A stretch of DNA of 64,000 bases from Verrucomicrobiota bacterium (GCA_024233345.1 JACKPT010000015.1:3386-67385), one strand, 5' to 3'. Counted from the stretch's first letter, positions 11,136-46,985 are shown. Translations and numbers: made by a program. Notes: generated from the letters alone by a model not told the origin.

Positions 11136-11197
11136 CATCCCACCCCCGGTCCCGCAATCCTGTTGACGGAAAAATCGTCTGCCAGTACGACTTAACC

Positions 11198-18383: not shown

Positions 18384-18418
18384 AGCAGTGTCCCTCCCGA
18401 CACCCGACACCTTCTTCC

Positions 18419-19638: not shown

Positions 19639-19661
19639 ACCCGCGGCCATCGCAACCAAGA

Positions 19662-20132: not shown

Positions 20133-20154
20133 GATATGTTCCTTTGGGGTGGAA

Positions 20155-22148: not shown

Positions 22149-22154
22149 GAATGC

Positions 22155-22396: not shown

Positions 22397-22431
22397 TTCG
22401 CCTCGCGAGCATACGAGCGGTATCCTAACGG

Positions 22432-22566
22432 GGGCCAATGTTGACCACGGCAGTCGCACTGCGAGCCTGCGAAGGTGACCCGCCGTTGGGGCAAGCGGCG
22501 ATCCCATGGTCTGGACACGGCCAGGTTGGCCGTGTCACTTTTTTCCCTCGTGCTGAAGGCACGCCG
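22432..22566. repeat. Partial third REP-like unit plus an extra gtgctgaaggcacgcc hairpin
   Basis: 22432-22506 matches the central part of units A and B (ggggccaatgttg...ggtgacccgccgttggggcaagcggcgatccc). 22549-22566 repeats the terminal hairpin. Confidence 0.7.
22515..22546 (+). terminator. Intrinsic-terminator-like hairpin inside the REP array
   Basis: A 9-bp stem, gacacggcc-aggtt-ggccgtgtc, followed by ac + tttttt. Confidence 0.5.
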
Positions 22567-22641
22567 CCCGGCATTGTCATGGACGGAGAACATGGGTATG
22601 GTTTACAGTCGGAATGGTTTGATTGAACTGGAACGATACTC

Positions 22642-24989: not shown

Positions 24990-25050
24990 CACACGGTATC
25001 AATCCCTTTAACCTGCACCCCCATAAGACTGTGCATACAGGAGACGATGT

Positions 25051-27841: not shown

Positions 27842-27847
27842 CCCGCC

Positions 27848-30911: not shown

Positions 30912-30915
30912 ATAA

Positions 30916-31040
30916 GGTTTCAGGTTTCAGGTGTCAGGTTTCAGGTGTCAGGATATATGGTTTCCCTTGGTCGGGCAGGCAGGTGTCGGCGACGAGAAGC
31001 CTTCGTATTCCTGAAACCTGAACACTGACACCTGACACCT
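30916..31040. repeat. Inverted run of ggtttcaggtgtcagg / cctgaaacctgacacc modules (left flank of the four-helix-bundle cassette)
   Basis: 30916-30952 reads ggtttcaggtttcaggtgtcaggtttcaggtgtcagg. 31010-31040 reads cctgaaacctgaacactgacacctgacacc, an imperfect reverse complement. Confidence 0.75.
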
Positions 31041-31054
31041 TTAAATCCTGAAGT

Positions 31055-31513
31055 ATGACCGACAAAACCTGGCTTGCAGTTGAAGATCTCGAGGTCTACC
31101 AAAAGTTGTGTGCTCTCCACTTGAAGGTATGTGAACTCTCTCATCAATGGCCCGCAGAAGAACGGTATGAATTAGGCAGTCAAGTTAGGCGCTCCTCCAA
31201 TAGTTCACCCGCGCAGTTGGCTGAAAAGAATGACGATCGACACGTTCGAAATAAGATTGAAGGGGTCAATCGCGCCCGTGGTGAAGCGGCGGAAACGATT
31301 CATCACCTGTACATGGCGACATTGAAATCCTATGTTTCTCAAGAGGTATTTCATGACTACCGTGCCCGTTATCAGGAATGCATTCGGATGCTTAATGGCC
31401 TGGAGCGCACCCTCGAACGCAAACTGCCTGAAGAATCACGCCGTTGGCAGGCCAGAGAAACTAGTTCTGATTACGGAAGATCCCTGCGCGGTTGGCCAGA
31501 GAGCGCAGGATGA
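31055..31513 (+). CDS. Four-helix-bundle protein (23S rRNA intervening-sequence protein / Avd-like family)
   Basis: DLEVYQKLCALHLKVCELSHQWPAEERYELGSQVRRSSNSSPAQLAEK matches the family pattern (helix, fp..e.y.l..Q.rR...S...N.aE). 152 aa. Confidence 0.8.
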   Translation: MTDKTWLAVEDLEVYQKLCALHLKVCELSHQWPAEERYELGSQVRRSSNSSPAQLAEKNDDRHVRNKIEGVNRARGEAAETIHHLYMATLKSYVSQEVFHDYRARYQECIRMLNGLERTLERKLPEESRRWQARETSSDYGRSLRGWPESAG

Positions 31514-31514
31514 G

Positions 31515-31735
31515 GTGTCAGAGAGGTTTCAGGTTTCAGTGTTCAGGTGTCGGGGATGAGTTTTCAGGTTACAGTGTTCGGGTGTATGTTAACGATTCAC
31601 AATAGCCACCACCTGCCTGCCCGGTCAGGGATACTAGGCTACCCGTCCAGAGTAACCTCCTCTTTCCTAAAACCTGCCTGCCCGGCCAGGGAAACCCGAC
31701 ACCTGACACCTGAAACCCGACACCTGAAACCTCCT
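31515..31735. repeat. Mosaic repeat block (right flank of the four-helix-bundle cassette)
   Basis: Contains ggtgtcagagaggtttcaggtttcagtgttcaggtgtcgggg, then cctgcctgcccggtcaggg, then aacctgcctgcccggccagggaaacccgacacctgacacctgaaacccgacacctgaaacc. Confidence 0.75.
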
Positions 31736-31780
31736 CTTCCCGCCTCTGCGGGACGAAGCGGGATCACCCGTCCCGAAACC

Positions 31781-32308
31781 ATGATTCTGCTCTGCCTGCT
31801 TCTCGCCATGGCATCCATCGGGTTCGCGATCTGGGGGCAGGCCCGGAAGAACCAGCGGATTGCCCAGACCTACCATGAGCTGCGATCCATGCTGACTGCC
31901 TGTTCCCGCTATTACCGGGAATACGGGGTTTGGCCGGTGGAGGGCGAGCCGGTGGTGGGACGGGATGTCGTGGTCGGCATGGATGGAATCAATCGTTCGG
32001 TCTTTTTCCGGCTTGCTGCCCGGGAGGGGGAGGGGAATGAGGGTAACCGATACAATGCGCGCCAGATCGACTACCTGATCCCGCTCCCCGACGATCCCCG
32101 GCCCACGACCCTGACCTTCAATCGCCAGGGCGATGCCCTCGACCCTTGGGGGAATCCCTACCGTCTCTCCTTCGACGCCAACTTCGACGGCACCCTGGAA
32201 ATCCGCGGCGACTACGCCACTCGCATCCCTGGCGAAGGGGTCGCGATCTGGTCCGCCGGCCCCGATCAGCGATACGGTACCCGCCACGATATCCGGTCGT
32301 GGCGGTGA
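31781..32308 (+). CDS. GspG-like pseudopilin lacking a canonical prepilin leader
   Basis: Has an N-terminal hydrophobic helix MILLCLLLAMASIGFAIW and a C-terminal GspG-type core, DPWGNPYRLSFD...IWSAGPDQRYGT. The track ORF (from 31547) runs upstream through repeat DNA. Confidence 0.6.
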   Translation: MILLCLLLAMASIGFAIWGQARKNQRIAQTYHELRSMLTACSRYYREYGVWPVEGEPVVGRDVVVGMDGINRSVFFRLAAREGEGNEGNRYNARQIDYLIPLPDDPRPTTLTFNRQGDALDPWGNPYRLSFDANFDGTLEIRGDYATRIPGEGVAIWSAGPDQRYGTRHDIRSWR

Positions 32309-32312
32309 GGTT

Positions 32313-32597
32313 AATTTGAGATTTATGATTTAAGATTTAAGATTGAAGATTTGTGATCTGGGGATTTGAGATTGAGATTTGTGATTGGGGAAAATTCACC
32401 ACAGAGGTCATAGAGAATCACAGAGGGATAGGGTGATGGGTCACCTCGTAGCGTGGGTCTCCAGACCCGCGTATTTGTAGCCGGGCTGAACACAACCGAT
32501 TACGATTACGAGCATGATTACGCGTATAAGCCGACTGCCAGGGCCTGCCCGGCGAGGGACACCTGAAACCTAAAACCCGACACCTGCCTGCCCGGGC
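32313..32597. repeat. Composite mosaic repeat (modules A-B-C-D-E-F), including 117-bp core copy 1 (32387-32503)
   Basis: See the finding on mosaic repeats. Core copy 1 differs from copy 2 at 4 positions. Confidence 0.85.
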
Positions 32598-32770
32598 AAA
32601 GCGTGACATGCAGACGTTCGCTGGGTAGTATTTCCCTATGGAGCTAAGTAGCGTCAGTGGATTTCAGGAGGAGACAAGGCAAGATCGACAGCGCCACCGA
32701 TCAATGACCCCGGAACAGAGGCTTGATCTGGTCGAGCAATTGCGGATCCGCCATGAAAAGATGTTCGGCC

Positions 32771-33214
32771 ATGATTACCCATCCCGACTTCGAAGAGTTT
32801 TTGGCACTTCTGGCCAAACATCACGTTGAGTACATGCTGGTCGGGGGCTATGCCGTGGCATTTCATGGCTACCCCAGATTTACCAGGGATCTCGATGTTT
32901 TTTACCGGTGCACTGAGGAAAACATCACCAAACTCAGGAATTCTTTGATCGAATTTGGTTTTACCCGGAACCAGGTTCAGGAGCAGCCCTTTGAGAAGCC
33001 GGGTGAAATCATCCACTTCGGAGTGGAACCGATCCGGATCGACCTGCTCAACGAGGTGGACGGAATTACCTTTGAAGAGGCTCTCCCCCATGCCGTTCAA
33101 GGTTCATACGGACGCACCCCGGCAACCTTTATTGGTAGACGCCACCTGCTTCAAAACAAACGCGCAACCCCGAGGCTGAAAGACAAGGCCGATGTTGAGG
33201 AACTGGAGGGCTAA
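32771..33214 (+). CDS. Nucleotidyltransferase-fold protein (AbiEii/DUF6036-like), function unknown
   Basis: GGYAVAFHGYPRFTRDLDVF fits the pol-beta NTase G[GS]-x(9-13)-D-x-D pattern. The C-terminus is RRHLLQNKRATPRLKDKADVEELE. I chose ATG 32771 within track ORF 32723-33214. Confidence 0.55.
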   Translation: MITHPDFEEFLALLAKHHVEYMLVGGYAVAFHGYPRFTRDLDVFYRCTEENITKLRNSLIEFGFTRNQVQEQPFEKPGEIIHFGVEPIRIDLLNEVDGITFEEALPHAVQGSYGRTPATFIGRRHLLQNKRATPRLKDKADVEELEG

Positions 33215-33229
33215 CGTAGAAGACCGTTG

Positions 33230-33719
33230 AAGTTCACCGCGGAGGGATTGGGTGATTGAATACTGCGGATTGAAGATTGATGATTTGGGATTTGTGATTG
33301 GGGAAGATTCACCACAGAGGTCACAGAGAATCACAGAGGGATAGGGTGATGGGTCACCTCGTAGCGTGGGTCTCCAGACCCGCGTATTTGGAGTCGGGCT
33401 GAACACAACCGATTACAATTACGATTACGAGCATGAGCGCAGAGTAGGGATTTTAGATTCCAGATTGATGATTTGAGATTTGTGATTGGGGAAGATTCAC
33501 CACAGAGGACACAGAGAATCACAGAGGGATAGGGTGATGGGTAACCTCGTAGCGTGGGTCTCCAGACCCGCGTATTTGGAGTCGGGCTGAACACAACCGA
33601 TTACGATTACGAGCATGATTACGCGTAAGAGCCGACTGCCAGGGCCTGCCCGGCCAGGGACACCTGAAAACACCAAAACCCTGAAACCCGAAACCTGCCT
33701 GCCCGGCCAGGGAAACCTG
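33230..33719. repeat. Two tandem composite mosaic repeats (period 188 bp), with 117-bp core copies 2 (33300-33416) and 3 (33488-33604)
   Basis: Cores 2 and 3 differ at 2 of 117 positions (read directly from the sequence). They are followed by gccgactgccagggcctgcccggccagggacacctgaaa... modules. Confidence 0.9.
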
Positions 33720-33825
33720 GCCCCCCCGAAACCTTTTTCCACTCTTCTCTTTCCAAATAAAAGGCGTAGGTGTAGCCTTTTACCACGATTGATGTAGTAG
33801 ACATGAAACAGATGAAGGTGAGGAC

Positions 33826-34287
33826 ATGATAAACCGGGCTAGAAATGAACTTTCTTCCAGTGAACTTTCCCGGTGGCGCAGGCAGATGCAGCAGGGTTTC
33901 ACCCTGGTTGAACTGTTGGTGGTCATGTCGATCATCGGGATCCTGGTGGGTCTTACCATCGGTATCGCTGGGTTAGCTGGTCGTAAATCTGCCGATGCAC
34001 AAGCCATTGCCGAAATTCAGCGACTTTCCATGGCCCTCGATCAATATCGAGCTGAGTATGGTGCTTATCCGAATTTTGGGCCGGCACTGACAAATATGCC
34101 GAATTCTGTTTCAAACGACCTGACCAGGGCTGACGGAAAAATCAGGGCTCAGGAATTATCATTCATCGATCCCTGGGGTAACGGATACCGGTATACCTGG
34201 TCATCGAAATATCAAATCGAAATACGCTCACTCGGAGCAGATACTTCATTGGATGAGGATGATTTGATCAGCGGCCAGCAAAATTAG
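33826..34287 (+). CDS. GspG-like major pseudopilin (prepilin-type N-terminal cleavage/methylation domain)
   Basis: Contains QQGFTLVELLVVMSIIGILVGL and the GspG-type core DPWGNGYRY...SLGAD. AGGTGAGG lies upstream of the ATG. Confidence 0.8.
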   Translation: MINRARNELSSSELSRWRRQMQQGFTLVELLVVMSIIGILVGLTIGIAGLAGRKSADAQAIAEIQRLSMALDQYRAEYGAYPNFGPALTNMPNSVSNDLTRADGKIRAQELSFIDPWGNGYRYTWSSKYQIEIRSLGADTSLDEDDLISGQQN

Positions 34288-34377
34288 CCCATTTTCCGGC
34301 AAGGCCTACACAGTCCGTTTGCAACTCGGTATGATATAGACAGGTGCTGTAAAGCATTGAACATAAATAGGTAAATC

Positions 34378-35007
34378 ATGAATACTATGCTTTTGAAAAC
34401 TTGCAGGATAACGCATGAGAATCCGAGGCTCACCCCGGAAAATCATTGGTCTGACCGGATTCCAGCCGCCGCGATTCCTGCCCGGGATCGGCAGCGAGCA
34501 AGTGCAGCATTTACGCTGATTGAGCTGTTGGTGGTCATTGCGATCATTGCCATCCTTGCCGGGCTGCTGCTTCCAACCCTTTCTTCAGCATTTAAATCAG
34601 CGGATAAGTCCAAGGCAAATACCGAAGTTCGCGGACTCGAGACCGCAGTCAAACAGTATGTCAATGAGTACAGCAAGTTCCCATTGCAAACCGGGTCGGG
34701 CAGCGACACCGTCCTTACCACCGGGAATGCGGCGATCCTCGATGTTTTGCGGGGACTGAATACCACCGAAAACCCCCGCGGCATCGTTTTTCTTGAGGTA
34801 GCCGACAATGGCATGGATGCCCTGGGGAATATGGTGGATCCGTGGGGCAGTGCCTATCGCCTGGCTTTCGATACCGACTATGACAACATCGTTTCCGCAG
34901 GGGGGAGTGTGGGAGATGTTCGGGGCCGGAATGTCATTGTTTGGTCGATCGGTCAAAATGCATCTGATTCCGATGTCGAAAATTTCATCACTTCCTGGAG
35001 CGAGTGA
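34378..35007 (+). CDS. GspG-like pseudopilin paralog with a long leader
   Basis: Contains SAAFTLIELLVVIAIIAILAGLLLPTL and DPWGSAYRLAFDTDYD. The leader is about 45 aa as drawn, so the true start is uncertain. Confidence 0.75.
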   Translation: MNTMLLKTCRITHENPRLTPENHWSDRIPAAAIPARDRQRASAAFTLIELLVVIAIIAILAGLLLPTLSSAFKSADKSKANTEVRGLETAVKQYVNEYSKFPLQTGSGSDTVLTTGNAAILDVLRGLNTTENPRGIVFLEVADNGMDALGNMVDPWGSAYRLAFDTDYDNIVSAGGSVGDVRGRNVIVWSIGQNASDSDVENFITSWSE

Positions 35008-35032
35008 GTGATCTGTTGACAGGCTTTAATCG

Positions 35033-35728
35033 ATGAACGCGACCAAACAGAAGAACATGGCGGCTAGGTGGAATGGGTTCACCCTGGTAGAGCTGCTCGT
35101 GGTGATAGCCCTGATGGGTTTGTTGATCGGGTTGACGATTCCCGCGTTTCAGAGCATGGGGCGGGGGACCGCTGCCAAGTCGGCCGTCGCCCAAGTCCGC
35201 GCGGCTCTGACCCTGGCTCGTCAGCATGCGATCGTCAACGGAGAGCGGACCTATGTCGTCTTCCCCAGCCTTCCCTCCCAAGGCGAAAAATACCTTCGCA
35301 GCTTCAATATTTATGGCCAATCCAATGGCTACCTCCAGGCTTGGACATATCTGCCTGGCGGCGTGGTCTTCATCAAGGATCGATCCAGCTTTTTCAATGA
35401 GAACTTGATCGATGACGACAAGAATGTCTTTGCCAATGGGAGTCTGCTTCCAAAAATCCAGTATGCATTGCCCTTTCCCTCGAACAATAGTCCGGATGTG
35501 GTCATGCGGGTGATCGGCTTCATGCCGGATGGCAAGCCGTTTTCAGTCGATGGAAATCTGCGGGGACCGGATGCCGAACTCTACATTACGGAGGGGACGG
35601 TATCGGTAAATCCGGGCACGGGGGTGGGAACCTATGCGGTCCGCTCGAAGGAGAATTCATCCCTTTACAGCGTCTCCCTCAACCCCCTGACCGGTATGTC
35701 CAAAGTTGTCGACTACCGGGCATTTTAG
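35033..35728 (+). CDS. GspH/FimT-like minor pseudopilin
   Basis: Contains WNGFTLVELLVVIALMGLLIGLTIPAF, followed by AVAQVRAALTLARQHAI. Confidence 0.7.
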   Translation: MNATKQKNMAARWNGFTLVELLVVIALMGLLIGLTIPAFQSMGRGTAAKSAVAQVRAALTLARQHAIVNGERTYVVFPSLPSQGEKYLRSFNIYGQSNGYLQAWTYLPGGVVFIKDRSSFFNENLIDDDKNVFANGSLLPKIQYALPFPSNNSPDVVMRVIGFMPDGKPFSVDGNLRGPDAELYITEGTVSVNPGTGVGTYAVRSKENSSLYSVSLNPLTGMSKVVDYRAF

Positions 35729-36249
35729 TGATGACTATGAAGGAACAATCAGGTCGTAACGCGGGCTTTTCCCTGGTCGAAATTGCTTTGGCCCTGATGG
35801 TCACTGCGGTAGGAATGATGGGGATCATGTCCCTGATTCCTGCCTCTTTGGATCTCAACAAGCGGGCCATTGAGGATGGTCAACTCAGCCTATTTGCCGA
35901 CCAGGTGTTAAATGGCTACCGGGCTGAAGTATTGCGCAACCCCTGGGCCCAGCGCTTCAATCATACCTTGAGCCCGATGTCTCCCGAGGTCTGGATTATC
36001 AGCGCCGGCAATCCTCTTACCGTCGAACCGGAACCCGGCACTGGGCTCTCGACAAACTTTTATACCTACAAATCGGCAGGTGGCCGGTTTGTCGAGGATC
36101 TGGTGGTTCGCTACCGGTTGCGCGTTGAAAACTCGAATTTCGATCCAAATATTCTGGAATGCGAGCTCGAGGTTTGGCCGGGTCAATTTGGTTCGGAACT
36201 AAATCCGCTCACCTACTATACGGAAATCTATCGGGGGGATGGGTTGTAA
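35728..36249 (+). CDS. GspI/PilV-like minor pseudopilin
   Basis: Contains NAGFSLVEIALALMVTAVGMMGIMSLIP. Its start overlaps the preceding stop. Confidence 0.65.
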   Translation: MMTMKEQSGRNAGFSLVEIALALMVTAVGMMGIMSLIPASLDLNKRAIEDGQLSLFADQVLNGYRAEVLRNPWAQRFNHTLSPMSPEVWIISAGNPLTVEPEPGTGLSTNFYTYKSAGGRFVEDLVVRYRLRVENSNFDPNILECELEVWPGQFGSELNPLTYYTEIYRGDGL

Positions 36250-37052
36250 TGCATCGCCCCGATACACCATGCCCGTCCCGCTGGTTCCGGCAATCCCGCG
36301 AATCCTGCCAGGCGTTTACGTTAATCGAACTGTTGGCCGGGATGGCGCTGCTCCTGATTATTGTCCTCTTCTTGTCCCGGGTGTTTGCTGATACCACATC
36401 CGCATGGCAAAACAGCAATAAGCGGATGGAAGCCAACATCAGCGGCCGGACGGCTCTGGAATTTATGGCCCGGGAAATCAGCTCCGCCATCGCGGATGGC
36501 ACCCTGCATTTAAAGCTGGAGTCTGATGCGGTATCCGTCCTCGGTAAACAAGCGGACCGCCTCTATTTTCTTGCTTCAGATCAGGTCTCGCGAAAGAAAA
36601 ATTCCACCTATCGCCAAGTGAAACAGGTGGGCTTTTCCGTGGGCGCCATGACGCATCCGGTTACCGGGGCCGATATGCCGCATCGGTTTGCCATCCGGCG
36701 TACCGGGGTGGAATCTCTGGGTAGCCAGTACTATCTGGCCTATCAAAAAGATGATTGGTGGACAACCATGGATGCCATCGCCTTTACCGAGGTCATCGCC
36801 GAAAATGTCCGGGACCTCAATTTCTGGGTCTATGATGCCTCCGGCAACAGTCTTGCGAATTATGACTCCACGGTGGACGGCCCGCCCGCTTTCATTGACA
36901 TCGTGGTGGAGATGTTGAGCGAATCGGACGCGATCAAGATTGCCGCCGCCAGTAGTGCTGCGCAGCGGGAAGAACTGGCGGACCGTGCCGCACATCGATA
37001 TTTCACCCGGGTCTTTTTCAACAACTATCAAGGATATGTGATCGCACCATGA
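36249..37052 (+). CDS. GspJ/PilW-like minor pseudopilin
   Basis: Contains CQAFTLIELLAGMALLLIIVLFLSRVFADTTSAW. ATG 36249 overlaps the preceding stop (TAATG). The track ORF starts at 36159. Confidence 0.65.
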   Translation: MHRPDTPCPSRWFRQSRESCQAFTLIELLAGMALLLIIVLFLSRVFADTTSAWQNSNKRMEANISGRTALEFMAREISSAIADGTLHLKLESDAVSVLGKQADRLYFLASDQVSRKKNSTYRQVKQVGFSVGAMTHPVTGADMPHRFAIRRTGVESLGSQYYLAYQKDDWWTTMDAIAFTEVIAENVRDLNFWVYDASGNSLANYDSTVDGPPAFIDIVVEMLSESDAIKIAAASSAAQREELADRAAHRYFTRVFFNNYQGYVIAP

Positions 37053-39193: not shown

Positions 39194-39427
39194 CCAGTAA
39201 GCCGTGAAAAGGGTGGTTGTCGTAAATCGGGAATGCCTTCACTCCAAAGTATTACTCAGCTTTTCCGCTGGTTTTCCGTCGGATATCCATTTGCCGGGCA
39301 ATAGCCCGAAATACAGAAGGAAACGAAGGAAGCGAAGTTGGATCTGTTTCTGGGTCCGAGCCCTGAGAGGGACCTCTTCCTAAGCGGGCTCTTGATGATG
39401 TGCTGTCAATGCAGTAGCGATTGACAC

Positions 39428-39700
39428 CCACCACAGAGGCCACAGAGAATCACAGAGGGATTGGAGATTGGTCACCTCGTAGCGCGGGTCTCCTGCCCGT
39501 GTATCGGGAGCCGGACTGCGCCTGGGCGTCCAGGAAACACCGTCCAATCAATACGCTTCATTCACCAATCCCAAATCTTAAATCTTCAATCCCCCAATTC
39601 CTCTGCGCTCTCTGTGCCCACTGTGGTGAATCTTCCCTGACTTTCCGATCAACCAATCTTCAATCTAAAATCTTCAATCTAAAATCATAAATCTCAACTC
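39428..39700. repeat. Mosaic repeat block with modules in both orientations (long imperfect hairpin)
   Basis: 39428-39459 reads ccaccacagaggccacagagaatcacagaggg, and 39598-39632 reads ttcctctgcgctctctgtgcccactgtggtgaatcttcc. It also has aatcttcaatc-type runs (reverse-complement form of module A). Confidence 0.8.
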
Positions 39701-39707
39701 ATCATTC

Positions 39708-42700
39708 CTACGGTGCGGTCAGGCGGATGCTATAGATTGGGTTCGTGACTCCAGTCGGGAAATTGAACCAGACTTGATTGGTGCCGCCGGTCCATTGTTC
39801 ATTGAAGGGGGTGACCATGGTCCAGGCCACCGGATTGGCCATCAGGTTCGTGGTTATCATCGGCTGCACGGTCCAGTTGTCGGGATTGCCCACCACCGTG
39901 AACTGCACATTGGTCTTCATGATCAACGCGGTGATGTACGCTTCAGGCACGATTAGATCGCCAAAGATCTGGCCCATGTTGACCGCACCGGGCGTGGAGA
40001 AGACTATGTTCGTATCAAATGCCCAGGCAAAATCATCCCGGTTGGTGCCGGTACCGATCAGAGCGACACCGTTGGTACCTGCTGGTTCGATGTCAATCTT
40101 GCTGACCAGTTCAAATCCACTGGCCACGCCTCCGAACATAATGCTGTCTTCGACGCCTCCGACTTCATTGAGCAGTTGAATCCCGGTTGGAATGTCCCAG
40201 AGTAGATTGGTGAACATTTGATCAGAGGCATCGGGCAATAATTCGTTCCCGAGAACCCAGAAACCATATCCACCGCTTTCATTCAACAAGGTTGTGTTGT
40301 TGGTGATCGTATAGCGGGATATCAGGGTGATTTCGTGATAAATCGCAATGGACCAATCTGAAAGGTCAAAGCCGGCAATCCCTGCCAATTCAATGAAGGC
40401 AGGGGTAAATGCAAATCCCCAACTATTGAAAGCATCATTATAATCCACCTCATTGATCCAGACCTGACCTGGTTCCGAACGCGGGATCCCGTAGGAACCG
40501 GGGACGCCGGGGGCTGTGTCCGGATAGTAGGCGGGGGAGTTGAGTTCACTTCCGGGACCGGAGAATTCTACCTTGAAGTAGTACTGCACGATGGTACCGG
40601 CGGGTTGAGCCGGAATATTCGTCGCGGACCGATAGGTGATGTAGCCGGTATTGGTCATCGCGAGGGTGGTAAATCCGCCGCTGGTTCCGATTCGGTAGTA
40701 CGCGGTCACGTTGGTCGTTTCCGCGCCGTTGGCGGGTAAGACGATGGCATCGAGGTAGACGGCATCATTGGTAAAGGGGGCCGGGGGATCGATTTCCGCA
40801 TTGATCACCACATCCGCCGGAGGCTTGGGGGTATCAATGAGAATGTTGTCGAAAAGGACACGCCCGCCTCCATTTTTGTACAACCGGACATATACCCCAT
40901 TGGTGATGAAATTATATTTCGAGTAGTACAAATATCCACTATCATTGGTAATCGATAGCGTATCGATTGATGTCCAGGAAGATCCATTAATCGATGTCTG
41001 TATCTCGACTGCTGCGGTGTTATTCGTGTCGGTAGACCATAGCTTGTATTGGAACGAGATATTTCCTGCGCCATCTGGGAATAAGTGCGATTGTATAATG
41101 GACTGTGTGTTGCGGTTCATCCGCCCAACTTGTCCCTCGTATCCTTCCTCTGGGTCTACAATGACCTCCTGAACCGACCAACCCTCCCATTCATCGGTTC
41201 CTGAGGTGTAGGAGCCTTTGCGCGGCCAGGTTTCAAAGTTCTGGTTTCGGTAGGCCACTGGTTTGCTGATGCTGAAATCGTCGATCAATAGTTCCTGGGG
41301 ACCGGTTTCTCCGGTCGCAACCCCGACAATATAGACATCATCGAAGGCCAGGTTTCCTGAAACTTTGGTATAGGTAAACCGGATCTGGATGACATTGGTG
41401 GAAAGGGAGTAGGAGGGGCTGGACTCGGTATTGCTCAGCGAGGTGAGGTTGACCAGGGTGGTCCACAGGCTGCCGTCGGTGGTGGTTTCAATGAGGAATG
41501 AAGAACCGGAAATCCCATTGCCCTTCATCCAGAAGGTCAGGTTGGTTGGATGATTCAAAACCGGGGTGGTGATCGTATCGCCTGTGGTATCGAATTTCAC
41601 TGAGTTGGGAGACTCCCCGGAGCTGGAATCGCTGGTATATTCACCAACCCCATCAAAGAGCCAGCCGCCAGGGGCTTCACTACCTTCGGTAAATGGTTCC
41701 TGGATCAGGACATTGTCTATCGCTCCGGCATCGATCTGCTGGTTGACAATGCGAATATAGCGGGGGTTGGGTTCGTAAAAGAACTGATTATATTGGATGT
41801 AGGAACCACTGATGATCGGCTCAATCACTGCTAGGTCCGTCCAGGTATTGCTGCCATCGGGCGATTCCTGCAGCCGCAGCGATGCGGGTCCATAGCCATT
41901 GGTGCCCCTGGCGTACTGGAAGGAGATGGTCCCATATCCGTCACTGTAGTAGGGGGAGCGGAGTTGCCAGGTAAAGACATTGGTGGGAACGAGTGGATCA
42001 CCAATGACCCCGGAGGTTCCACTGTAGGCTTCATTGGTGGTGATGCGTCCGAGACTGAGCAGCCAGTCATTGATGGTGATGATGGTGTCTGATGTATTGG
42101 TCCATCCCGCTCCTTCGAAATCCTGCAACCGTGGATCATCGGTGGCATCCGCGAGCTGAATGTCATCGATGAGGAGGTTGTTGGTGCCGGATAAATGATC
42201 GACGCGTACATAGCGAACATCAGGGTCGGCAAGGTACAGAGAGTAGGACTGATAACTTTGGGCGACAATGTTGGATACCGTGCCTTTGGTGGTCCAAGAA
42301 CTGCCGTTGGGCGAAGTCTGGACGCGGAAGGTGATGGGCTCGAGGTTGTCCTCCGGATCTGTGGTGTTTTCATGCCGGTAGAAAAAATTGACCCGGCCCA
42401 CCCCGGAGGTGGTAAGCGGGGAAACAATCTGGCCCCCCTGGGGTAGACTCGCGGCCAGCCCGGTGCGGGCTTCATCGGTGACTGATCCCGTGGTCATCAA
42501 CCAGCCTGCATAGCTGTATCGCCCGGGAGTAAAGGCGAATGGCCAACTGAAGGATTGAGCCATGGGGGGAATCTCCCGGATCGATACATCATCGAACTGT
42601 AGGGAACCAAGATCGCCCGCCCCGCTGACACTGATTACGGAACGCGCGTACATGGTGCCCTCTGGGGCCTCTCCGATGACCTTGAACTCCGTCCAGTCAC

Positions 42701-43469
42701 TGGTCAAACCATCGAGCGGGGTTGCGTATACCGCGAGGGGACCGCTGAACCCGGACCCAAAAAATTCAATTTTCAGCTCTTTGTTGTCGGCAGTCCAGGG
42801 ACCATAGGGTGGTTCCGCATCGGCCCAGAAGTTTGCCGTCAACTCATAGGTAAAGCCGCGCCCGGCAGGAATATCCTGCCAGAATCCGCCATAATCCCAA
42901 TCACCCGCCCCGATGTAGGCAATCGATGAGCCGGTGAGTGCACGCCAATCGGCCCGGCCGACGTTTCCCCATAGATCCCCCATACCATCAGGAAACCCAT
43001 TTTCCCAGTGAAGGGGTTTGGTTTCTTCCGAACCTTCCAGCTCAAAGCTGCCATTGCGGGTGCGGTTGGTCCAGGGCAGAGAAACACTGTCCAAAATGAT
43101 CGAGTAGATCAGGGTCTGATCATTGAAGGTGAAACGGTAATAGCCATCCTGGGGGAAGGAGATTGCTATGTCCGCGGCTGTAAGGATTGCAACGTTGGTC
43201 ACTGGAGGCGAGAGGATCGCGGATTGGCCCCAGTTGATGTCCCAAGAGCGATTCGCAGCGAATTTGAAATACTCTTGGGCGCCCCGCTGCGCAAACAGGG
43301 TGGCCCGCCAGGTGTTGTTCGACACCAGGGTCATGTTGTTGGCCCCGGGGTTCCAGCCCTGGAAACTCCCGGCGAGGGTCATGCTGGAATAGACCGAGGT
43401 CTGGGCCAGCCCCACCACAGGGAGGGCGGTCACCAACAGGGTAATGGCAAATCGTCTCAACATCTTCAA
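39708..43469 (-). CDS. Large secreted protein: CBM-like N-domain, six repeated beta-sandwich modules, lamin-tail domain, shared C-terminal module
   Basis: The signal peptide is MKMLRRFAITLLVTALPVVGLAQT. GSFQGWNP...YFKFAANRSWDINWG is CBM20/48-like, and NGSFELEG is CBM4_9-like. Module ends recur as DDVSIREI, IDDIQLAD, DNVLIQE, FDDVYIVG, IDDFSISK and FDNILIDT. The LTD-like segment is GQVWINEVDYND...FIELAG...LSDWSIAIY (about nt 40100-40480). Confidence 0.7.
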   Translation of the reverse strand: MKMLRRFAITLLVTALPVVGLAQTSVYSSMTLAGSFQGWNPGANNMTLVSNNTWRATLFAQRGAQEYFKFAANRSWDINWGQSAILSPPVTNVAILTAADIAISFPQDGYYRFTFNDQTLIYSIILDSVSLPWTNRTRNGSFELEGSEETKPLHWENGFPDGMGDLWGNVGRADWRALTGSSIAYIGAGDWDYGGFWQDIPAGRGFTYELTANFWADAEPPYGPWTADNKELKIEFFGSGFSGPLAVYATPLDGLTSDWTEFKVIGEAPEGTMYARSVISVSGAGDLGSLQFDDVSIREIPPMAQSFSWPFAFTPGRYSYAGWLMTTGSVTDEARTGLAASLPQGGQIVSPLTTSGVGRVNFFYRHENTTDPEDNLEPITFRVQTSPNGSSWTTKGTVSNIVAQSYQSYSLYLADPDVRYVRVDHLSGTNNLLIDDIQLADATDDPRLQDFEGAGWTNTSDTIITINDWLLSLGRITTNEAYSGTSGVIGDPLVPTNVFTWQLRSPYYSDGYGTISFQYARGTNGYGPASLRLQESPDGSNTWTDLAVIEPIISGSYIQYNQFFYEPNPRYIRIVNQQIDAGAIDNVLIQEPFTEGSEAPGGWLFDGVGEYTSDSSSGESPNSVKFDTTGDTITTPVLNHPTNLTFWMKGNGISGSSFLIETTTDGSLWTTLVNLTSLSNTESSPSYSLSTNVIQIRFTYTKVSGNLAFDDVYIVGVATGETGPQELLIDDFSISKPVAYRNQNFETWPRKGSYTSGTDEWEGWSVQEVIVDPEEGYEGQVGRMNRNTQSIIQSHLFPDGAGNISFQYKLWSTDTNNTAAVEIQTSINGSSWTSIDTLSITNDSGYLYYSKYNFITNGVYVRLYKNGGGRVLFDNILIDTPKPPADVVINAEIDPPAPFTNDAVYLDAIVLPANGAETTNVTAYYRIGTSGGFTTLAMTNTGYITYRSATNIPAQPAGTIVQYYFKVEFSGPGSELNSPAYYPDTAPGVPGSYGIPRSEPGQVWINEVDYNDAFNSWGFAFTPAFIELAGIAGFDLSDWSIAIYHEITLISRYTITNNTTLLNESGGYGFWVLGNELLPDASDQMFTNLLWDIPTGIQLLNEVGGVEDSIMFGGVASGFELVSKIDIEPAGTNGVALIGTGTNRDDFAWAFDTNIVFSTPGAVNMGQIFGDLIVPEAYITALIMKTNVQFTVVGNPDNWTVQPMITTNLMANPVAWTMVTPFNEQWTGGTNQVWFNFPTGVTNPIYSIRLTAP
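39711..39947 (-). other. Shared C-terminal ~80-aa module, copy in the 1253-aa protein
   Basis: Sequence: VQFTVVGNPDNWTVQPMITTNLMANPVAWTMVTP...GVTNPIYSIRLTAP. Confidence 0.5.
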
Positions 43470-43544
43470 TCTCCTATCCTCTGGGGATAATTTACCCCCG
43501 AACCCTACGCCCGTTAAAGCGCTTTTGCCAAGTGAGGAGTTTGT

Positions 43545-44145
43545 TGGGGGATTGGTTGATTAAAGATTTGAGATTTGAGATTGAAGATTGGTGAATTGAG
43601 ATTGGGGAATGGTGAGTCGGGGGAAGGTTCACCACAAAGGACACAGAGAGCGCAGAGTAATTGGGGGTTGGATGATTGAAGAATGAAGATTGATGATTTG
43701 AGATTGGGGATTGGGGGTTAGGGACCTGGCCCTGAAGGGGCCGAAGTCGATAGCCCATGGCAGAGCCATGGGGGAGGACGATCCCCCAAACAAATTTGTG
43801 CTGAAGGCACGACATTCGGGTCCTGAAACCTGCCTGCCCGTCCAGGGCCTGCCCGGCCAGGGCCTGCCCGGCCAGGGACACCTACCACAGAGGACACAGA
43901 GAAACACAGAGGGAGATTGGGTGATTGGTAAACTCGTAGCGTGGGTCTCCAGACCCGCGTATCGGGAGCAGAACTGAACGCAACCGATTACGATTACGAT
44001 TAGGATTACGAGTAGGAGGAGGGTTACCCCCCCCCAATCTCTCTCTCTGCGCTCTCTGTGGTGGGTGCCCCTGGCCGTGCAGGCCCTGACCGGAAAGTCG
44101 GCTCATACTTCATAATCGTAATCCTAATCGTAATCGTAATCGAAA
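43545..44145. repeat. Largest mosaic repeat block, including an inverted REP-like unit (43722-43815), a 15-mer x3 tandem (about 43831-43876) and a 25-bp perfect inverted repeat
   Basis: Modules A, B, C, D and E are all present, several in both orientations. Details are in the findings. Confidence 0.85.
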
Positions 44146-44283
44146 CAGGGATGCTGGGTGCATGATGAATCAAGCATCAGGGCCCGAGGGTTAAGCCAGA
44201 GGTACTCTTTTCCGCTTCCTGTGGTTTATCTTTCCGGATAGTTTGACCTGACAGATGGGGCAAATCCGGTTAATGATCCTACC

Positions 44284-46707
44284 ATGACCCAAACACTGCT
44301 CCATCATGATGGTATTTCCTGCCGGTTCATCCTGATCCTCGCCGGATGGCTGGTCGCCATGCCCGCCCTCGCGACAATCCCGATTGTGGAGGATATCGAT
44401 GCGGATGATGATGTGTTGTCCGTCGACTGGGCGCCGGACGATACCCATGTGGGGGTGGGGACTGGTACAATCCTCGCCAAGGAACTCAAGGTCTACTCCT
44501 TTTCCGCGATCACAGAAGTGCTGACCCTTCGCTACCAAACCAACTATTCCGCGACGCCCCAGCCAGTGAATGCGGTCCGATGGCATCCTTCCCAGCATTA
44601 CCTCGCGGTGGGGAGTCAGGACAACTCCGCACATGAACTGACTGTCTATAATTTCAATGAAATCACCCACAAACCGACCGCAACCAACAGTGTTGATTTC
44701 GGTACCTTTGACAGTGTCAAGGCACTGGCCTGGAATCCGAATGGCAATACCCTTGCGGTGGGGACGGACATCTCAGATAAGGAAATCATTCTGTATTCCT
44801 ATGGCCCCGGCTCTCTATCCACATCGAGGGTGTTCAATGTGGATTCCAGTAACACACGACAGATCATGACCAATGCCATGGCCTGGCATCCGGGGGGTAC
44901 CAACCTTGCTGTCGGGTTCGCCTATAACTCGAGCTCACTGGCGGAAGAACTCAGAGTGTATTCATGGAATGGATCAATCTTGACGGAAAAGTTCGCCGCC
45001 AACATGACATCGCTGCATGACGTTTCGGCGGTTGGTTGGTCGGCGAATGGACGGGTGCTTGCAGTGGGGCTTCATCGGGCAACTGCGTCTGCTGCGCAAA
45101 AGCTCCTGTTGTACCGAGAAAGCGGGGGGGATTGGGATGTGGACATCGCTTATGTACCTCCAACCCTTAATAACATCGTTGGCCTTGAATGGTCGCCGGA
45201 GGGAAATCTTCTTGCTGTGGCCTATGATCGGTCTGCGCTCGGTGCTGATGTTGGACTTTATCGATATCGCGAAGATACCGATTCCCTTGAGTATTTGGAT
45301 GGAGCTCTAGCGTCTCTTAGTTCAACGGATGACGCCAACGACATCCGCTGGTCGGAGGATGGGCGGTATCTTGCGGTGGGGCATGAGAATGACAAGGTGT
45401 ACATTCTGGAGGTGAAGCAGGCGGACTTGCGGTTAACCAAGACGGTGTCGTCTTACCTGGTCTGCCCGGAGAGCAATCTGGTGTATTCCCTGAATGTGTT
45501 CAATGCCGGTCCGGATCCTGCGGTTTCGGTGGTGATTACCGATACACTTCCATCCCAGGTGACGTATGAAGGCAGTTCTTGGCCGACCGCACAGGTCTCG
45601 CAGGTGGGGCAGACGCTGACGTTTGATTTTGGTACGAACACCCTGCCCAGTTCATTTGGTGCGCTGATTTCGGTCACGGTCAGTGTGAATACCGCCGCTT
45701 CGGGGATCTTTACCAACTTCGCCGCCGTCTATAGCGAAACCACCGATCCGGAGTTCACCAACAATCTCGGGTTTGCCACCAATGCGGTGGATTTCGATTG
45801 CGACGGGATTGCCAATGAGCTGGACAACTGTCCGACCAATTTCAATCCCGATCAGGCCAACTCGGATGCCGACGGGTTTGGGGATGTCTGCGACAACTGC
45901 ATCAGCAATAGCAATCCCGACCAGCTTGATGTGGATTTCGATGGGCTGGGGAACGATTGTGATAACTGTCCAACCAATCCCAACCCAGGGCAGGTAAATT
46001 TCGATGGCGATCCGTTTGGCGATGATTGTGACGATTGCCCATTTGTCTACAATGAGACCAACGGCCTGCCAGATGTGGACGCAGATGGATTTGCCGACCT
46101 GTGTGATAACTGTCCGACCAACAGCAATGCTGGGCAAGAGGACGGGGATAGTGATGGGGTGGGGAATGTCTGTGATAACTGCCCCAGCGACGCCAACCCG
46201 GACCAGGCCAATCCGGACGGGGACAACCGGGGGAGTGCCTGCGATAACTGCCCGGACGTCGCCAATGATCAATCCGACAATGATGGCGATTTGATCGGCA
46301 ACGCCTGCGACCCGGATATCGACGGAGATGACCTGCCGAATGACTGGGAAAGTCTGTATGGCTTTAACCCAAACTTTTTTGAGGCCCCGGAAACCACCAA
46401 TGATCCGGATAACGACGGGTATTCGAACCTCGAGGAATACATTGGGAACACCAACCCCACCAACCCAGCCTCGTTCTTTGCTGTGCAAATGATCGGGAAC
46501 ACCACCGGGTTGTGGCTACAGGTACCCTCGGAAACCGGACGCCTGTTCGATGTCTGGACCTCCACCAACCGCCAGATGACCGACTGGACCCTGTATGCTA
46601 CCAATCTGCCCTCCACCTCCGGCACCACCCAGCTCCCGGAACCCGATCCCCAGCCGGGAGAAAAGAATTACCGGGTCAAGGTCCGACTGGAGCATCCCCT
46701 GCCGTAG
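44284..46707 (+). CDS. Secreted protein: 7-blade WD40-like propeller + DUF11 repeat domain + Cys-containing thrombospondin type-3 repeats + shared C-terminal module
   Basis: Blades are marked by W-x-P/A-x-G-x-x-LAVG (RWHPSQHYLAVG, AWNPNGNTLAVG, AWHPGGTNLAVG, GWSANGRVLAVG, EWSPEGNLLAVA, RWSEDGRYLAVG). The DUF11-like segment is LRLTKTV...VVITDTLPSQVTYEG. TSP3 repeats read DNCPTNFNPDQANSDADGFGDVCDNC, about 7 times. Confidence 0.75.
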   Translation: MTQTLLHHDGISCRFILILAGWLVAMPALATIPIVEDIDADDDVLSVDWAPDDTHVGVGTGTILAKELKVYSFSAITEVLTLRYQTNYSATPQPVNAVRWHPSQHYLAVGSQDNSAHELTVYNFNEITHKPTATNSVDFGTFDSVKALAWNPNGNTLAVGTDISDKEIILYSYGPGSLSTSRVFNVDSSNTRQIMTNAMAWHPGGTNLAVGFAYNSSSLAEELRVYSWNGSILTEKFAANMTSLHDVSAVGWSANGRVLAVGLHRATASAAQKLLLYRESGGDWDVDIAYVPPTLNNIVGLEWSPEGNLLAVAYDRSALGADVGLYRYREDTDSLEYLDGALASLSSTDDANDIRWSEDGRYLAVGHENDKVYILEVKQADLRLTKTVSSYLVCPESNLVYSLNVFNAGPDPAVSVVITDTLPSQVTYEGSSWPTAQVSQVGQTLTFDFGTNTLPSSFGALISVTVSVNTAASGIFTNFAAVYSETTDPEFTNNLGFATNAVDFDCDGIANELDNCPTNFNPDQANSDADGFGDVCDNCISNSNPDQLDVDFDGLGNDCDNCPTNPNPGQVNFDGDPFGDDCDDCPFVYNETNGLPDVDADGFADLCDNCPTNSNAGQEDGDSDGVGNVCDNCPSDANPDQANPDGDNRGSACDNCPDVANDQSDNDGDLIGNACDPDIDGDDLPNDWESLYGFNPNFFEAPETTNDPDNDGYSNLEEYIGNTNPTNPASFFAVQMIGNTTGLWLQVPSETGRLFDVWTSTNRQMTDWTLYATNLPSTSGTTQLPEPDPQPGEKNYRVKVRLEHPLP
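46462..46704 (+). other. Shared C-terminal ~80-aa module, copy in the 807-aa protein
   Basis: Sequence: FFAVQMIGNTTGLWLQVPSETGRLFDVWTSTNRQMTDWTLYATNL...GEKNYRVKVRLEHPLP. Confidence 0.5.
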
Positions 46708-46900
46708 GGATTTTGGATTGAAGATTGAAGATTGAGGATTTGAGATTTGGGGATTTGTGATTGTTCGGGGAAGTTCACCAGCGAAGTTTCACCACAGAGG
46801 ACACAGAGAGGGCAGAAGATTGAGGATTTGAGATTGAAGATTGGGGAATTGAGATTGTTGATTGGATAGGCCCTGGCCGGGCAGGGACACCTGAAACCCC
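46708..46900. repeat. Mosaic repeat block (modules A, B, A, E/F)
   Basis: Contains gattgaagattgaagattgaggatttgagatttgggg..., ttcaccacagaggacacagagaggg and ...ccctggccgggcagggacacctgaaacc. Confidence 0.8.
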
Positions 46901-46985
46901 TTTCCCCCGACACCTTCCTCGCCTCCGTTTCTTCATCGAAACTCACCGCTTGAACAAAGTTTCAATTTATGTGTCCATTTCCCAT

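Follow-up and report, generated by a model that had tools for sequence, protein, structure and literature searches.

Intergenic repeat blocks in a Kiritimatiellia secretion-gene region look like accumulated selfish insertions

In a 64,000-nt stretch of a Verrucomicrobiota bacterium genome (GCA_024233345.1, JACKPT010000015.1:3386-67385; hereafter, the window), a Kiritimatiellia secretion-gene region was found with its intergenic gaps crowded by small hairpin-forming repeat elements. The original prediction, made from the sequence alone, had described seven blocks built from modules A to F, and the question raised by this locus is whether such blocks are conserved regulators or selfish insertions. 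Since one of the repeat types is an inverted 7-base array that brackets four-helix-bundle (4HB) genes in many bacteria, selfish insertion seems a better description of the blocks than conserved regulation.

Composition of the seven blocks

The seven blocks and their modules were located where they had been claimed to lie. When mapped by blastn-short, all six modules matched only 30.9-46.9 kb of the window, and the map agreed with a single mosaic family, shuffled in order and present in both orientations, that fills the intergenic gaps. The reported absence of the modules from the housekeeping parts held in this search, except for one isolated short array outside the reported range. A repeat search of the window returned direct-repeat families D1-D14 and inverted pairs I1-I25. 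The hairpin arms of most elements were inverted arrays of a short periodic unit: RGGTKTC/GAMACCY for F'/F, GATTKRR for A/A', CACAGAG with 9-nt spacing for B/B' and CGATTA for D/D'. Module E was a GC-rich quasi-palindrome. The features were as follows:

18392-18412, minus strand: isolated short F'-like array, 3 mismatches to RGGTKTC x3
30912-31054, plus strand: block 1, 5' composite arm of the 4HB cassette; F' (AGGTKTC)n 30915-30952, E' 30959-30985, F 31007-31040 (TRF; pairs I11, I13, I15, I16)
31055-31513, plus strand: 4HB gene, cargo of the bracket; PF05635, E=5.9e-23; TIGR02436, '23S rRNA intervening sequence protein'
31514-31780, plus strand: block 2, 3' composite arm; F' 31517-31582, E 31609-31630 and 31670-31691, F 31691-31733 (blastn-short, repeat pairs, TRF)
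32309-32600, plus strand: block 3; A 32314-32390, B 32395-32427, C 32428-32497 (GTAG hairpin 32448-32471), D 32497-32522, E 32530-32558, F 32559-32585 (blastn-short, TRF)
32723-33214, plus strand: small nucleotidyltransferase-like accessory gene; AbiEii/nucleotidyltransferase Pfam matches weak, all below cut-off
33215-33825, plus strand: block 4; tandem A-B-C-D units 33254-33431 and 33449-33623, E 33631-33659, F 33660-33696, E 33697-33712 (blastn-short, repeat search)
39194-39707, plus strand: block 5, convergent gap; B 39429-39459, diverged C 39460-39518, A' 39557-39592, B' 39609-39637, A' 39652-39707 (pairs I18, I19; blastn-short; folding)
43470-44283, plus strand: block 6, divergent gap; A 43551-43612, partial B 43628-43656, A 43667-43724, half G 43720-43820, E x3 43826-43877, B 43883-43913, C 43914-43985, D 43985-44017, B' 44040-44065, E' 44069-44088, D' 44110-44142 (repeat search, blastn-short, folding)
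46708-46900, plus strand: block 7; A 46709-46765, B 46783-46816, A 46815-46865, E' 46869-46885, F 46886-46900 (blastn-short, TRF, B- and A-array counts)

The modules greatly exceeded chance. Against dinucleotide shuffles, the B core gave 9 matches with at most 3 mismatches (0.01 expected), the F array 17 (0.10 expected) and the A array 34 (0.00 expected), and all period-7 tandem arrays of at least 3 copies detected by TRF in the whole window lay within the blocks. The three 117-bp cores were near-identical as described, although their mutual differences amounted to 2, 4 and 6 positions and not 2-4. The nucleotidyltransferase-like gene sits between 197-nt direct repeats (D2, 32372-32568 in block 3 and 33473-33669 in block 4) that are 95% identical. 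The statement that the blocks are neither CRISPR arrays nor canonical terminators was borne out, promoter-like and terminator-like sites in them occurring at shuffle level.

The order of the arms within 200 nt was constant for F (16/16 pairs), A (6/6) and B (5/5), and local folds were better on the plus strand in five of the seven blocks. Block 1 formed a local hairpin of -65 kcal/mol, block 5 a long hairpin through its B...B' pair, and the D/D' arms of block 6 (I9) were 94% complementary. The first account is corrected in one further respect, as blocks 1 and 2 were mutually complementary over their full length, beyond their shared modules.

Module F and the four-helix-bundle gene cassette

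The PF05635 4HB gene is the cargo of a cassette whose terminal inverted arrays are formed by module F, and this association extends across genomes. A total of 2566 homologues of the 4HB gene were retrieved, the best 120 of which were 66-78% identical and mostly on contigs shorter than 3 kb. In 7/7 independent PVC-type loci examined (the window and six others), (RGGTKTC)n was found upstream and (GAMACCY)n downstream of the gene. The host contexts of the six other loci were HisKA-RR (two orthologous loci), T6SS ClpV-VgrG, HAD-GH38, MacB-OEP and FUSC-DUF1656. The stop codon of the 4HB gene lay inside the array in three of these six (L040-L042), and that of the window was followed by the F' array instead. 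Furthermore, 36 of the best 120 homologues ended in ET or DT, that is, GAAACCTGA or GACACCTGA translated; in many others the reading frame continued deeper into the array, and some had spurious N-terminal extensions corresponding to the translated upstream array. On Nostoc plasmids, 7/8 4HB genes (32-38% identity) lay between (GCAGGGR)n-type arrays and their complements, which abut the start and stop codons of the gene. No published description of this array bracket around 4HB genes was found.

The 841-nt RNA comprising blocks 1 and 2 and the gene was predicted, in both the MFE and the centroid structure, to enclose the reading frame within an outer and an inner stem (z=-8.6). The outer arms (30922-30952 and 31702-31732, I11) are 97% complementary while standing 750 nt apart. 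Between two orthologous loci 4HB was 81% conserved, versus 61-67% for its neighbours, which suggests selection on the gene itself and weighs against the selfish reading.

The proposal that the modules accompany 4HB genes was strongly supported for F, but not as a general rule, since most blocks (counted as 6/7) touch no such gene. Period-7 arrays were about ten times denser around 4HB genes (27 in 92.8 kb) than in control loci (7 in 240.8 kb). "Empty" F'-loop-F hairpins without the gene were also observed, one of them present in L040 and absent from the orthologous spacer of L242. In addition, A-, B- and F-type arrays occurred in 190 IMG/VR loci without any 4HB ORF, and the arm sequences recurred in contigs whose GC content ranged from 42 to 71%, as well as in predicted viral contigs. 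From this wide range, the arm sequences could instead be selected functional motifs.

Modules C and G and the Y1 transposase gene

Judged from its sequence, module C is a REP-like palindrome with a GTAG tag, located within B...B' hairpins, GTAG REPs being defined by a GTAG tag and a palindrome (PMC3733652). Its hairpin consists of GTAG followed by an 8-bp GC-rich stem with one T:G pair, in four exact copies; the diverged copy (about 39479) still folds, as had been predicted. The T:G wobble had been read as a sign of plus-strand RNA. This argument carries no statistical weight: in the seven copies compared, no pair had changed on both sides, two had changed on one side and one was broken. A G:T pair would be equally acceptable in a single-stranded DNA hairpin. 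Five C copies were all in one orientation, whereas the REPs of BIMEs alternate. Only chance matches to the C core were obtained in 596 Gb of species-representative genomes, and in metagenomes the B-C unit was recovered at the orthologous locus only. In contrast with classical REPs, C hence seems confined to this locus or lineage.

A seventh module, G, was detected in block 6 (43720-43820) and, in the opposite orientation, at three positions outside the reported range (19398-19644, 22142-22406 and 22431-22571). The features concerned were:

19398-19644, unstranded: G element, inverted pair of Acido-Lenti-1-like hairpins adjoining the Y1 gene (direct repeats D6, D9, D17)
19662-20132, minus strand: IS200/IS605-type Y1 (HUH) transposase gene with G elements on its flanks; PF01797, E=5.8e-22; NF033573
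22142-22571, unstranded: G element 22142-22406 with 28-nt terminal inverted repeats (I25, 89% complementary) and partial copy 22431-22571

By these features, G resembles a REPIN, with two Acido-Lenti-1-type hairpins in inverted orientation. RF01687, with its gathering score of 37, scored 29.4 bits at 19437-19481(+), 35.5 at 19554-19598(-), 27.1 at 22193-22237(+) and 36.5 at 22310-22354(-); block 6 reached 26.8 bits at 43728-43772(-). The closest solved structures to the transposase were the ISDra2 and IS608 TnpA, and it is more like IS200/IS605 TnpA than like the RAYTs characterised so far; it is flanked by G and not by C. Strain L033 lacks this gene and the neighbouring IS1634 element. The original prediction could name no mobile element resembling the modules. 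Three likenesses speak against that: C has the form of a GTAG REP (PMC3733652), G comes close to the Acido-Lenti-1 threshold and borders a Y1 transposase gene, and the 4HB gene between its F arrays is organised like a 23S rRNA intervening sequence (PMC4990558).

Strain turnover, relatives and the origin of the blocks

Blocks 1 and 2 were 100% identical in L036 and 99.4-99.8% identical in L034 and L033, block 5 was identical in an independent MAG contig (L248), and blocks 3 and 4 were recovered in L039 at 97% identity with structural variants. In L039, the segment 32531-32585 of block 3 was swapped for A, G and E modules, and block 4 held one A-B-C-D unit versus two in the window. Block 1 of L035 lacked exactly two heptamers (30920-30933, 14 nt), and L248 showed indels inside the F array of block 4. 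The strain differences consisted of module gain, loss and swaps, and of heptamer copy number (slippage). In relatives with 78% GspF identity, gspF was followed by an ordinary 78-98-nt spacer and the orthologue of ORF 31781-32308, and this spacer contained neither the 4HB gene nor any module.

A conserved RNA found no support from covariation, which was seen neither in C nor in the register of the arms (score 19.1 within loci and 19.3 across loci), and no Rfam family reached its gathering score. The lack of conservation at the orthologous site and of covariation favours selfish or neutral DNA over a conserved functional RNA. It is rather unlikely that the blocks are host-selected cis-acting RNA elements of the operon, with a role in transcript processing or stability, in insulating cistrons from one another or in controlling translation. 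In such a scheme the purine-rich AGGTG/GAGG arrays would be Shine-Dalgarno-like and the CACCT/CCTC arrays anti-Shine-Dalgarno-like, and arm pairing would mask or expose ribosome-binding sites. The location of the blocks on the coding strand of a co-directional operon, the very stable predicted folds with their plus-strand preference, the constant hairpin polarity and the abutting Nostoc arrays all fit this scheme, as does the recurrence of arm sequences between genes of many unrelated contigs, often abutting start or stop codons. Module swaps and copy-number changes among strains, the shuffled order, the inversion of some modules and the lack of an excess of terminator-like sites do not.

A classical REP/RAYT system, in which the whole mosaic would be BIMEs and all modules would be moved by the Y1 transposase, is quite improbable. 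The tag and palindrome of C, the BIME-like composition and the placement of the Y1 gene between terminal-inverted-repeat elements, as for some RAYT genes (PMC3733652), are in its favour. Nevertheless, the C copies are few and unidirectional, the transposase is IS200/IS605-like, many contigs with F, A and B arrays have no such gene, and the transposase-less L033 retains blocks 1 and 2 unchanged.

Very unlikely as well is plain simple-sequence DNA, that is, heptamer microsatellites born and decaying by replication slippage, with neither element identity nor function. The two-unit strain difference, the F-array indels and the many heptamer types across related contigs agree with it, and heptanucleotides rank first among the long simple repeats of many bacteria (Mrazek 2007, as quoted in PMC4679880). 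However, slippage does not produce inverted partner arrays of constant polarity, and it leaves unexplained the bracketing of a specific gene family by one unit across genera and phyla, the distant complementary outer arms, and the non-periodic modules C and G, 82-100% identical between blocks. Finally, short-read contigs terminate within the blocks and the coverage of L039 is low, yet assembly artefacts (chimeric joins through repeats) can be virtually dismissed, because independent assemblies from different samples reproduced blocks 1-5.

The closest known parallel to the cassette is the 23S rRNA intervening sequence with an S23p/PF05635 ORF of Leptospira and Coxiella (PMC4990558), which has the same protein family in its loop, a long terminal-repeat stem (28 bp in Coxiella; here 31-bp outer and 34-bp inner), a place in the host transcript and a sporadic, selfish-looking distribution. 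Here and in the PVC loci, by contrast, the cassettes lie between operon protein genes instead of in helix 25/45 of 23S rRNA, periodic heptamer arrays make up the arms, hairpins without cargo coexist, and any cleavage by RNase III is putative. MITEs and modular repeats such as BOX of pneumococci, Correia of Neisseria and ERIC of enterobacteria (PMC3184786) are intergenic, 70-250 nt long and hairpin-forming, with terminal inverted repeats; they are co-transcribed with their neighbours and vary in presence among strains, and BOX is modular. The blocks share these traits of size, structure, location, strain variation and modularity. They differ in that neither target-site duplication nor cognate insertion sequence was found, and in that the terminal repeats are low-complexity periodic arrays common to phylum-level distances. 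Cyanobacterial STRR are comparable heptamer repeats. TAACTGA heptamer direct repeats, intergenic in Beggiatoaceae, Cyanobacteria and Bacteroidetes, are likewise tandem 7-nt units in 2-10 copies near start codons, with a patchy taxonomy that suggests horizontal spread (PMC4679880); these are described as direct only, in contrast with the inverted pairs of constant polarity that bracket one gene family here.

Resemblance to REP/REPIN/BIME and RAYT systems (PMC2817692, PMC3733652, PMC8266576) lies in the extragenic mosaic at which short-read assemblies break, in the GTAG tag of C, which is unpaired and precedes an imperfect, GC-rich palindrome, and in the inverted hairpin doublet of G beside a Y1 HUH transposase gene; the orientation of C and the G flanks differ, and A, B, D and F, most of the mosaic, are periodic arrays. 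The G hairpins fit the full 46-nt model of Acido-Lenti-1, with best scores just below the threshold, and the host, like Lentisphaerae, is a member of the PVC group. Their inverted pairs on both strands, their position at the transposase gene and the fragment in block 6 are more in keeping with a DNA repeat than with an sRNA gene. Integron cassettes are also small, promoter-less, co-oriented genes separated by structured imperfect inverted repeats, but here the repeat stands on both sides of the gene, no attC R/L-box pattern was apparent and the window yielded no integrase.

Neither a transposase nor a recombinase specific to the F, A or B hairpins was found. The blocks are probably piled-up families of small structured selfish or neutral elements, namely REP/BIME/MITE-like repeats and an IVS-like cassette, in an operon that also gained small accessory genes. 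Such elements would have inserted beside and within each other in and around the operon, with F as the terminal inverted repeat of a promoter-less 4HB cassette placed co-directionally inside host operons, and the empty hairpins may be derivatives without cargo. Spread may have occurred by recombination between arrays and/or, for C and G, by HUH-type single-strand transposition. If the cassette arms pair, the gene would lie inside a long stem, much as in those 23S rRNA intervening sequences that carry this gene and are cut by RNase III. Once transcribed, such long stems would be RNase III substrates, and the flanking cistrons would thereby remain usable.

Repeat blocks, their genes and their turnover

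Seven intergenic gaps between 30.9 and 46.9 kb (blocks 1-7) were filled with short repeat modules, six of them (A-F) named in the original prediction and a seventh designated G. Modules F (GAMACCY) and A (GATTKRR) are arrays of heptamers, and a prime marks the inverted arm (F', RGGTKTC). The names carried by GspF homologues place the organism in Kiritimatiellia. The blocks and genes are arranged as follows:

Start of the operon, upstream of block 1, plus strand: three gspE genes and gspF
30912-31054: block 1
31055-31513, plus strand: four-helix-bundle (4HB) gene, PF05635/TIGR02436
31514-31780: block 2
31781-32308, plus strand: pseudopilin-like ORF
32309-32600: block 3
Between blocks 3 and 4, plus strand: small nucleotidyltransferase-like gene
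33215-33825: block 4
Block 4 to block 5, plus strand: gspG, further pseudopilin genes and a 714-aa ORF
39194-39707: block 5
Between blocks 5 and 6, minus strand: 1253-aa gene
43470-44283: block 6
Between blocks 6 and 7: WD40/TSP3 gene
46708-46900: block 7, with more genes beyond it

The three consecutive GspE/PilB-type ATPase genes upstream of gspF (about 24900-29554) are paralogues, with Walker-box segments 70-76% identical to one another. A 63-aa ORF (32638-32829) overlaps, in another frame, the start of the nucleotidyltransferase-like ORF (32723-33214); this pair, which may be a toxin-antitoxin-like module, sits between 197-nt direct repeats of 95% identity. Additionally, a 3876-aa ORF (47916-59546) has seven or more repeats that are Asp-rich and thrombospondin-type-3-like (54303-55756), and no repeat modules were found within or downstream of it.

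In a blastn-short map of the window, every match of modules A-F fell within the seven blocks, as had been proposed. The enrichment over dinucleotide shuffles of the window was large for the B core (9 matches against 0.01 expected), the F array (17 against 0.10) and the A array (34 against 0.00), and all period-7 arrays with at least three copies lay inside blocks. A repeat search of the window regained the same families and added many inverted pairs. Three details of the original prediction had to be amended. The three 117-bp cores were indeed nearly identical, although they differ at 2, 4 and 6 bases and not at 2-4; the modules were absent from the housekeeping parts, except for one short F-like array at 18392-18412. 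Module G is present in block 6 but has further copies at 19.4 and 22.1-22.6 kb, beyond the range first described.

The alternative that the blocks are assembly artefacts was contradicted by contigs of the same locus from other samples, which reproduced blocks 1-5: blocks 1-2 were matched at 99.4-100% by three contigs (L033, L034 and L036), blocks 3-4 at about 97% by L039, and block 5 was identical in L248. For block 7, the protein encoded at 46950-47633 was looked up, with nothing on record. Short-read contigs repeatedly terminated within blocks, as is expected of multi-copy repeats.

Comparison of strains and relatives pointed to turnover of the blocks and not to their conservation. In strain L039, block 3 had A, G and E at the place where the window has E and F, and one A-B-C-D unit was found against two in the window. 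Contig L035 was shorter by exactly two heptamers, and L248 carried indels within an F array. In two Kiritimatiellia relatives (78% GspF identity), gspF was followed by an ordinary spacer of 78-98 nt and then by an orthologue of ORF 31781-32308 (34-35% identical), with neither a 4HB gene nor module matches at this site.

Inverted-repeat ends around a short non-coding core, the arrangement typical of MITEs, were observed in four forms:

F'...F inverted pairs: blocks 1 and 2
B...B' inverted pairs: blocks 5 and 6
D...D' inverted pair: 94% complementarity
G element: 28-nt terminal inverted repeats

The order of the arms was fixed in all 27 pairs compared, the same arm coming first in F (16/16), A (6/6) and B (5/5), and folding gave long imperfect hairpins with modules as arms in blocks 1, 2 and 5 and in the right half of block 6. 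No target-site duplication was evident by eye at the F or B hairpins, and no insertion sequence sharing their ends was found.

Module F as the bracket of four-helix-bundle genes

When region 30905-31745 was folded as one RNA (z=-8.6), the MFE and centroid structures agreed on two stems enclosing the 4HB ORF, an outer one pairing F'-E' with E-F and an inner one pairing F with F'. Complementarity between the outer arms reaches 97% in a stretch of 31 nt, despite the 750 nt that separate them. The 4HB protein had 2566 homologues at E<1e-5, the best 120 of which were 66-78% identical, carried Verrucomicrobiota or Lentisphaerae names and were encoded mostly on contigs shorter than 3 kb.

In six further independent loci the 4HB gene was found co-directional within unrelated operons, namely HisKA-RR (two orthologous loci), T6SS ClpV-VgrG, HAD-GH38, MacB-OEP and FUSC-DUF1656. 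The bracket was present in 6/6 of them, with (RGGTKTC)n upstream of the 4HB gene and (GAMACCY)n downstream. Module F is the conserved bracket of 4HB genes. In three of these loci (L040-L042) the 4HB stop codon lies within the array, whereas in the window it precedes the F' array. The translated array forms an ET or DT C-terminus in 36 of the 120 best homologues, and many others run deeper into it. The 4HB protein is better conserved than its neighbours between L040 and L242, which are orthologous (81% against 61-67% identity). Genes of the 23S_rRNA_IVP type wedged in cas operons have been described (PMC3936711), which fits this habit of operon insertion.

A bracket of a different unit was observed in Nostoc plasmids, where eight 4HB genes, 32-38% identical to that of the window, were compared. 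Seven of them (L235, L236, L252-L256) lie between purine-rich (GCAGGGR)n or (GCAGAGGA)n arrays and their complement, the former abutting the start codon and the latter immediately past the stop codon; the eighth has a partial upstream array only. Two of the plasmid genes adjoin tyrosine recombinase genes. No 4HB match was obtained in GenBank phages. In the literature searched, inverted periodic arrays on both sides of 4HB genes were not described, and this generalisation may be new.

Furthermore, arrays and hairpins also occurred without the gene. Empty F'-loop-F hairpins were present in other spacers of 4HB loci; one of 75 nt, between two response-regulator genes, is found in one species (L040, spacer 11109-11314) and missing from the orthologous spacer of another (L242, 6226-6423). 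The 4HB loci held period-7 arrays at about ten times the density of unrelated control loci, and relatives carried other heptamers (GGTGCTT, AATGTCC, GTTGGCA and ATGACCA). Among them, a relative of 86% identity has (GGTGCTT)n/(AAGCACC)n upstream of its gspF (L245, 1252-1460), and (AATGTCC)n/(TTGGACA)n lies within a T6SS operon (L041, 3972-4329 and 7028-7064). IMG/VR contigs were rich in additional F pairs and also carried arrays and hairpins of the A and B types. An HMM of the 120 homologues detected no 4HB ORF in 190 IMG/VR loci with F, A or B arrays. A six-frame translation search with the A-B-C-D-E-F unit, aimed at spurious ORFs called over repeats elsewhere, gave 7836 candidates that had words in common with it, none at E <= 0.001.

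Modules C and G, and tests for RNA and other functions

Module G comprises two inverted copies of a motif matching Rfam Acido-Lenti-1 (RF01687). The relevant features of the window are:

19437-19481, plus strand: RF01687 match, below gathering score
19554-19598, minus strand: RF01687 match, below gathering score
19662-20132, minus strand: IS200-like Y1 transposase gene (PF01797), flanked by G elements
20258-22120: IS1634 transposase gene
22193-22237, plus strand: RF01687 match, below gathering score
22310-22354, minus strand: RF01687 match, below gathering score
43728-43772, minus strand: RF01687 match, below gathering score

The matches scored 36.5, 35.5, 29.4, 27.1 and 26.8 bits and all span the whole model; the best in G (35.5-36.5 bits) are close to the gathering score of 37, and a weaker copy lies within block 6. 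A 2.76-kb segment with both transposase genes (19640-22153), edged by 201-nt direct G repeats of 92% identity, is missing from the 99.4%-identical L033. Near-threshold matches in inverted pairs on either side of a transposase gene raise the possibility that Acido-Lenti-1 is a DNA repeat of REPIN-like kind and not an sRNA.

Module C contains GTAGCGTGGGTCTCCAGACCCGCG in four exact copies, with an 8-bp stem including one G:T pair, and a diverged fifth copy. It has the palindrome-plus-GTAG form of GTAG-tagged REPs, which are 20-40-bp GC-rich imperfect palindromes carrying a terminal, unpaired GTAG (PMC3733652). Such REPs are spread through the genome in high copy number; five copies of C were counted in 64 kb. 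They also flank a cognate RAYT gene, whereas the only Y1 transposase gene of the window has G elements, not C, at its flanks and types as IS200/IS605. BIMEs combine REPs in alternating orientation and regular spacing with other conserved motifs; the motif mosaic is present here, but every copy of C has plus-strand orientation. In the genome contigs, 32 matches to the C core CTCGTAGCGYGGGTCTCC were obtained, about chance by estimate and none longer than 21 nt, and a metagenome scan anchored on B-C returned the orthologous locus L039 alone. In three GC-rich predicted viral contigs from IMG/VR (L113, L117 and L119), C-like GTAG-tagged GC-rich palindromes, e.g., ggtagggcggggcctccggacccgcc and tgtaggggcggacctatgtgtccgccc, adjoin GATTKRR arrays.

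The reading of the modules as conserved functional RNA was approached through Rfam, promoters and terminators, arm register and the C hairpin, and the outcomes were either negative or lacked power. In the window, none of the Rfam families reached its gathering score, and related loci yielded rRNA and tRNA only. Promoter-like sites showed no excess over shuffles, and in its K/M register the F' arm did not covary with the F arm within loci. The covariation sought in the C hairpin was not found either, its seven copies containing no double changes, two single wobble changes and one broken pair. The argument that its T:G wobble indicates a plus-strand RNA is compatible with these changes, but draws no support from them.

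As originally proposed, the blocks are not simple terminators: intrinsic terminators (a short GC-rich stem plus a T-run) numbered 17 against 17.2 in shuffles, and none coincided with module hairpins when coordinates were compared. An integron was set aside, as no attC pattern was evident and no integrase domain was found among the ORFs scanned around the blocks. A CRISPR array, also dismissed at the outset, is excluded by anatomy, the blocks having tandem 6-9-nt units or irregular modules in both orientations and no identical direct repeats with regular unique spacers.

Hairpin elements and a possible cassette class

On the best reading of the mosaic, hairpin elements that are selfish or neutral have piled up around an operon into which small accessory genes have also been taken. 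Recombination between arrays and HUH-type transposition may account for their spread. Among known elements, modules C and G come closest to REP/REPIN/BIME elements, the hairpins to MITE- and BOX-like modular repeats, and the 4HB cassette to 23S rRNA intervening sequences. Intergenic heptamer repeats are already known as direct repeats (PMC4679880). In 23S rRNA intervening sequences, an S23p ORF lies in the loop of a 28-bp closing stem cut by RNase III (PMC4990558). The 4HB cassette similarly carries a PF05635 ORF within terminal inverted repeats with a predicted stem of at least 20 bp; it differs in lying between gspF and a pseudopilin-like gene, not in a 23S rRNA helix, and no rRNA was found in the window.

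A broader and rather doubtful proposal is that array-bracketed PF05635 4HB genes are widespread, undescribed, promoter-less selfish cassettes. They would be the 'free-living' form of 23S rRNA intervening sequences and would insert co-directionally into operons, both in PVC bacteria and in cyanobacteria, the latter with another array unit. The Avd-like 4HB protein might recognise the nucleic acid of the arrays and help the element to be processed, maintained or spread, and cargo-less hairpin derivatives would be spawned and accumulate into mosaics like the one described here. The 4HB 'IVS' proteins are very common, and we know of no role for them outside diversity-generating retroelements.

For genomics, the hairpin stacks matter in that short-read assemblies of genomes from Kiritimatiellia and other PVC bacteria break at them, and in that they cause spurious ORFs and false start or stop extensions in annotation. 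Acido-Lenti-1 may be a misfiled Rfam motif, a DNA repeat and not an sRNA. The bracket, the operon insertion and the cargo-less relatives together give a testable picture of 4HB genes as cassette elements, which hint at where rRNA intervening sequences may originate.
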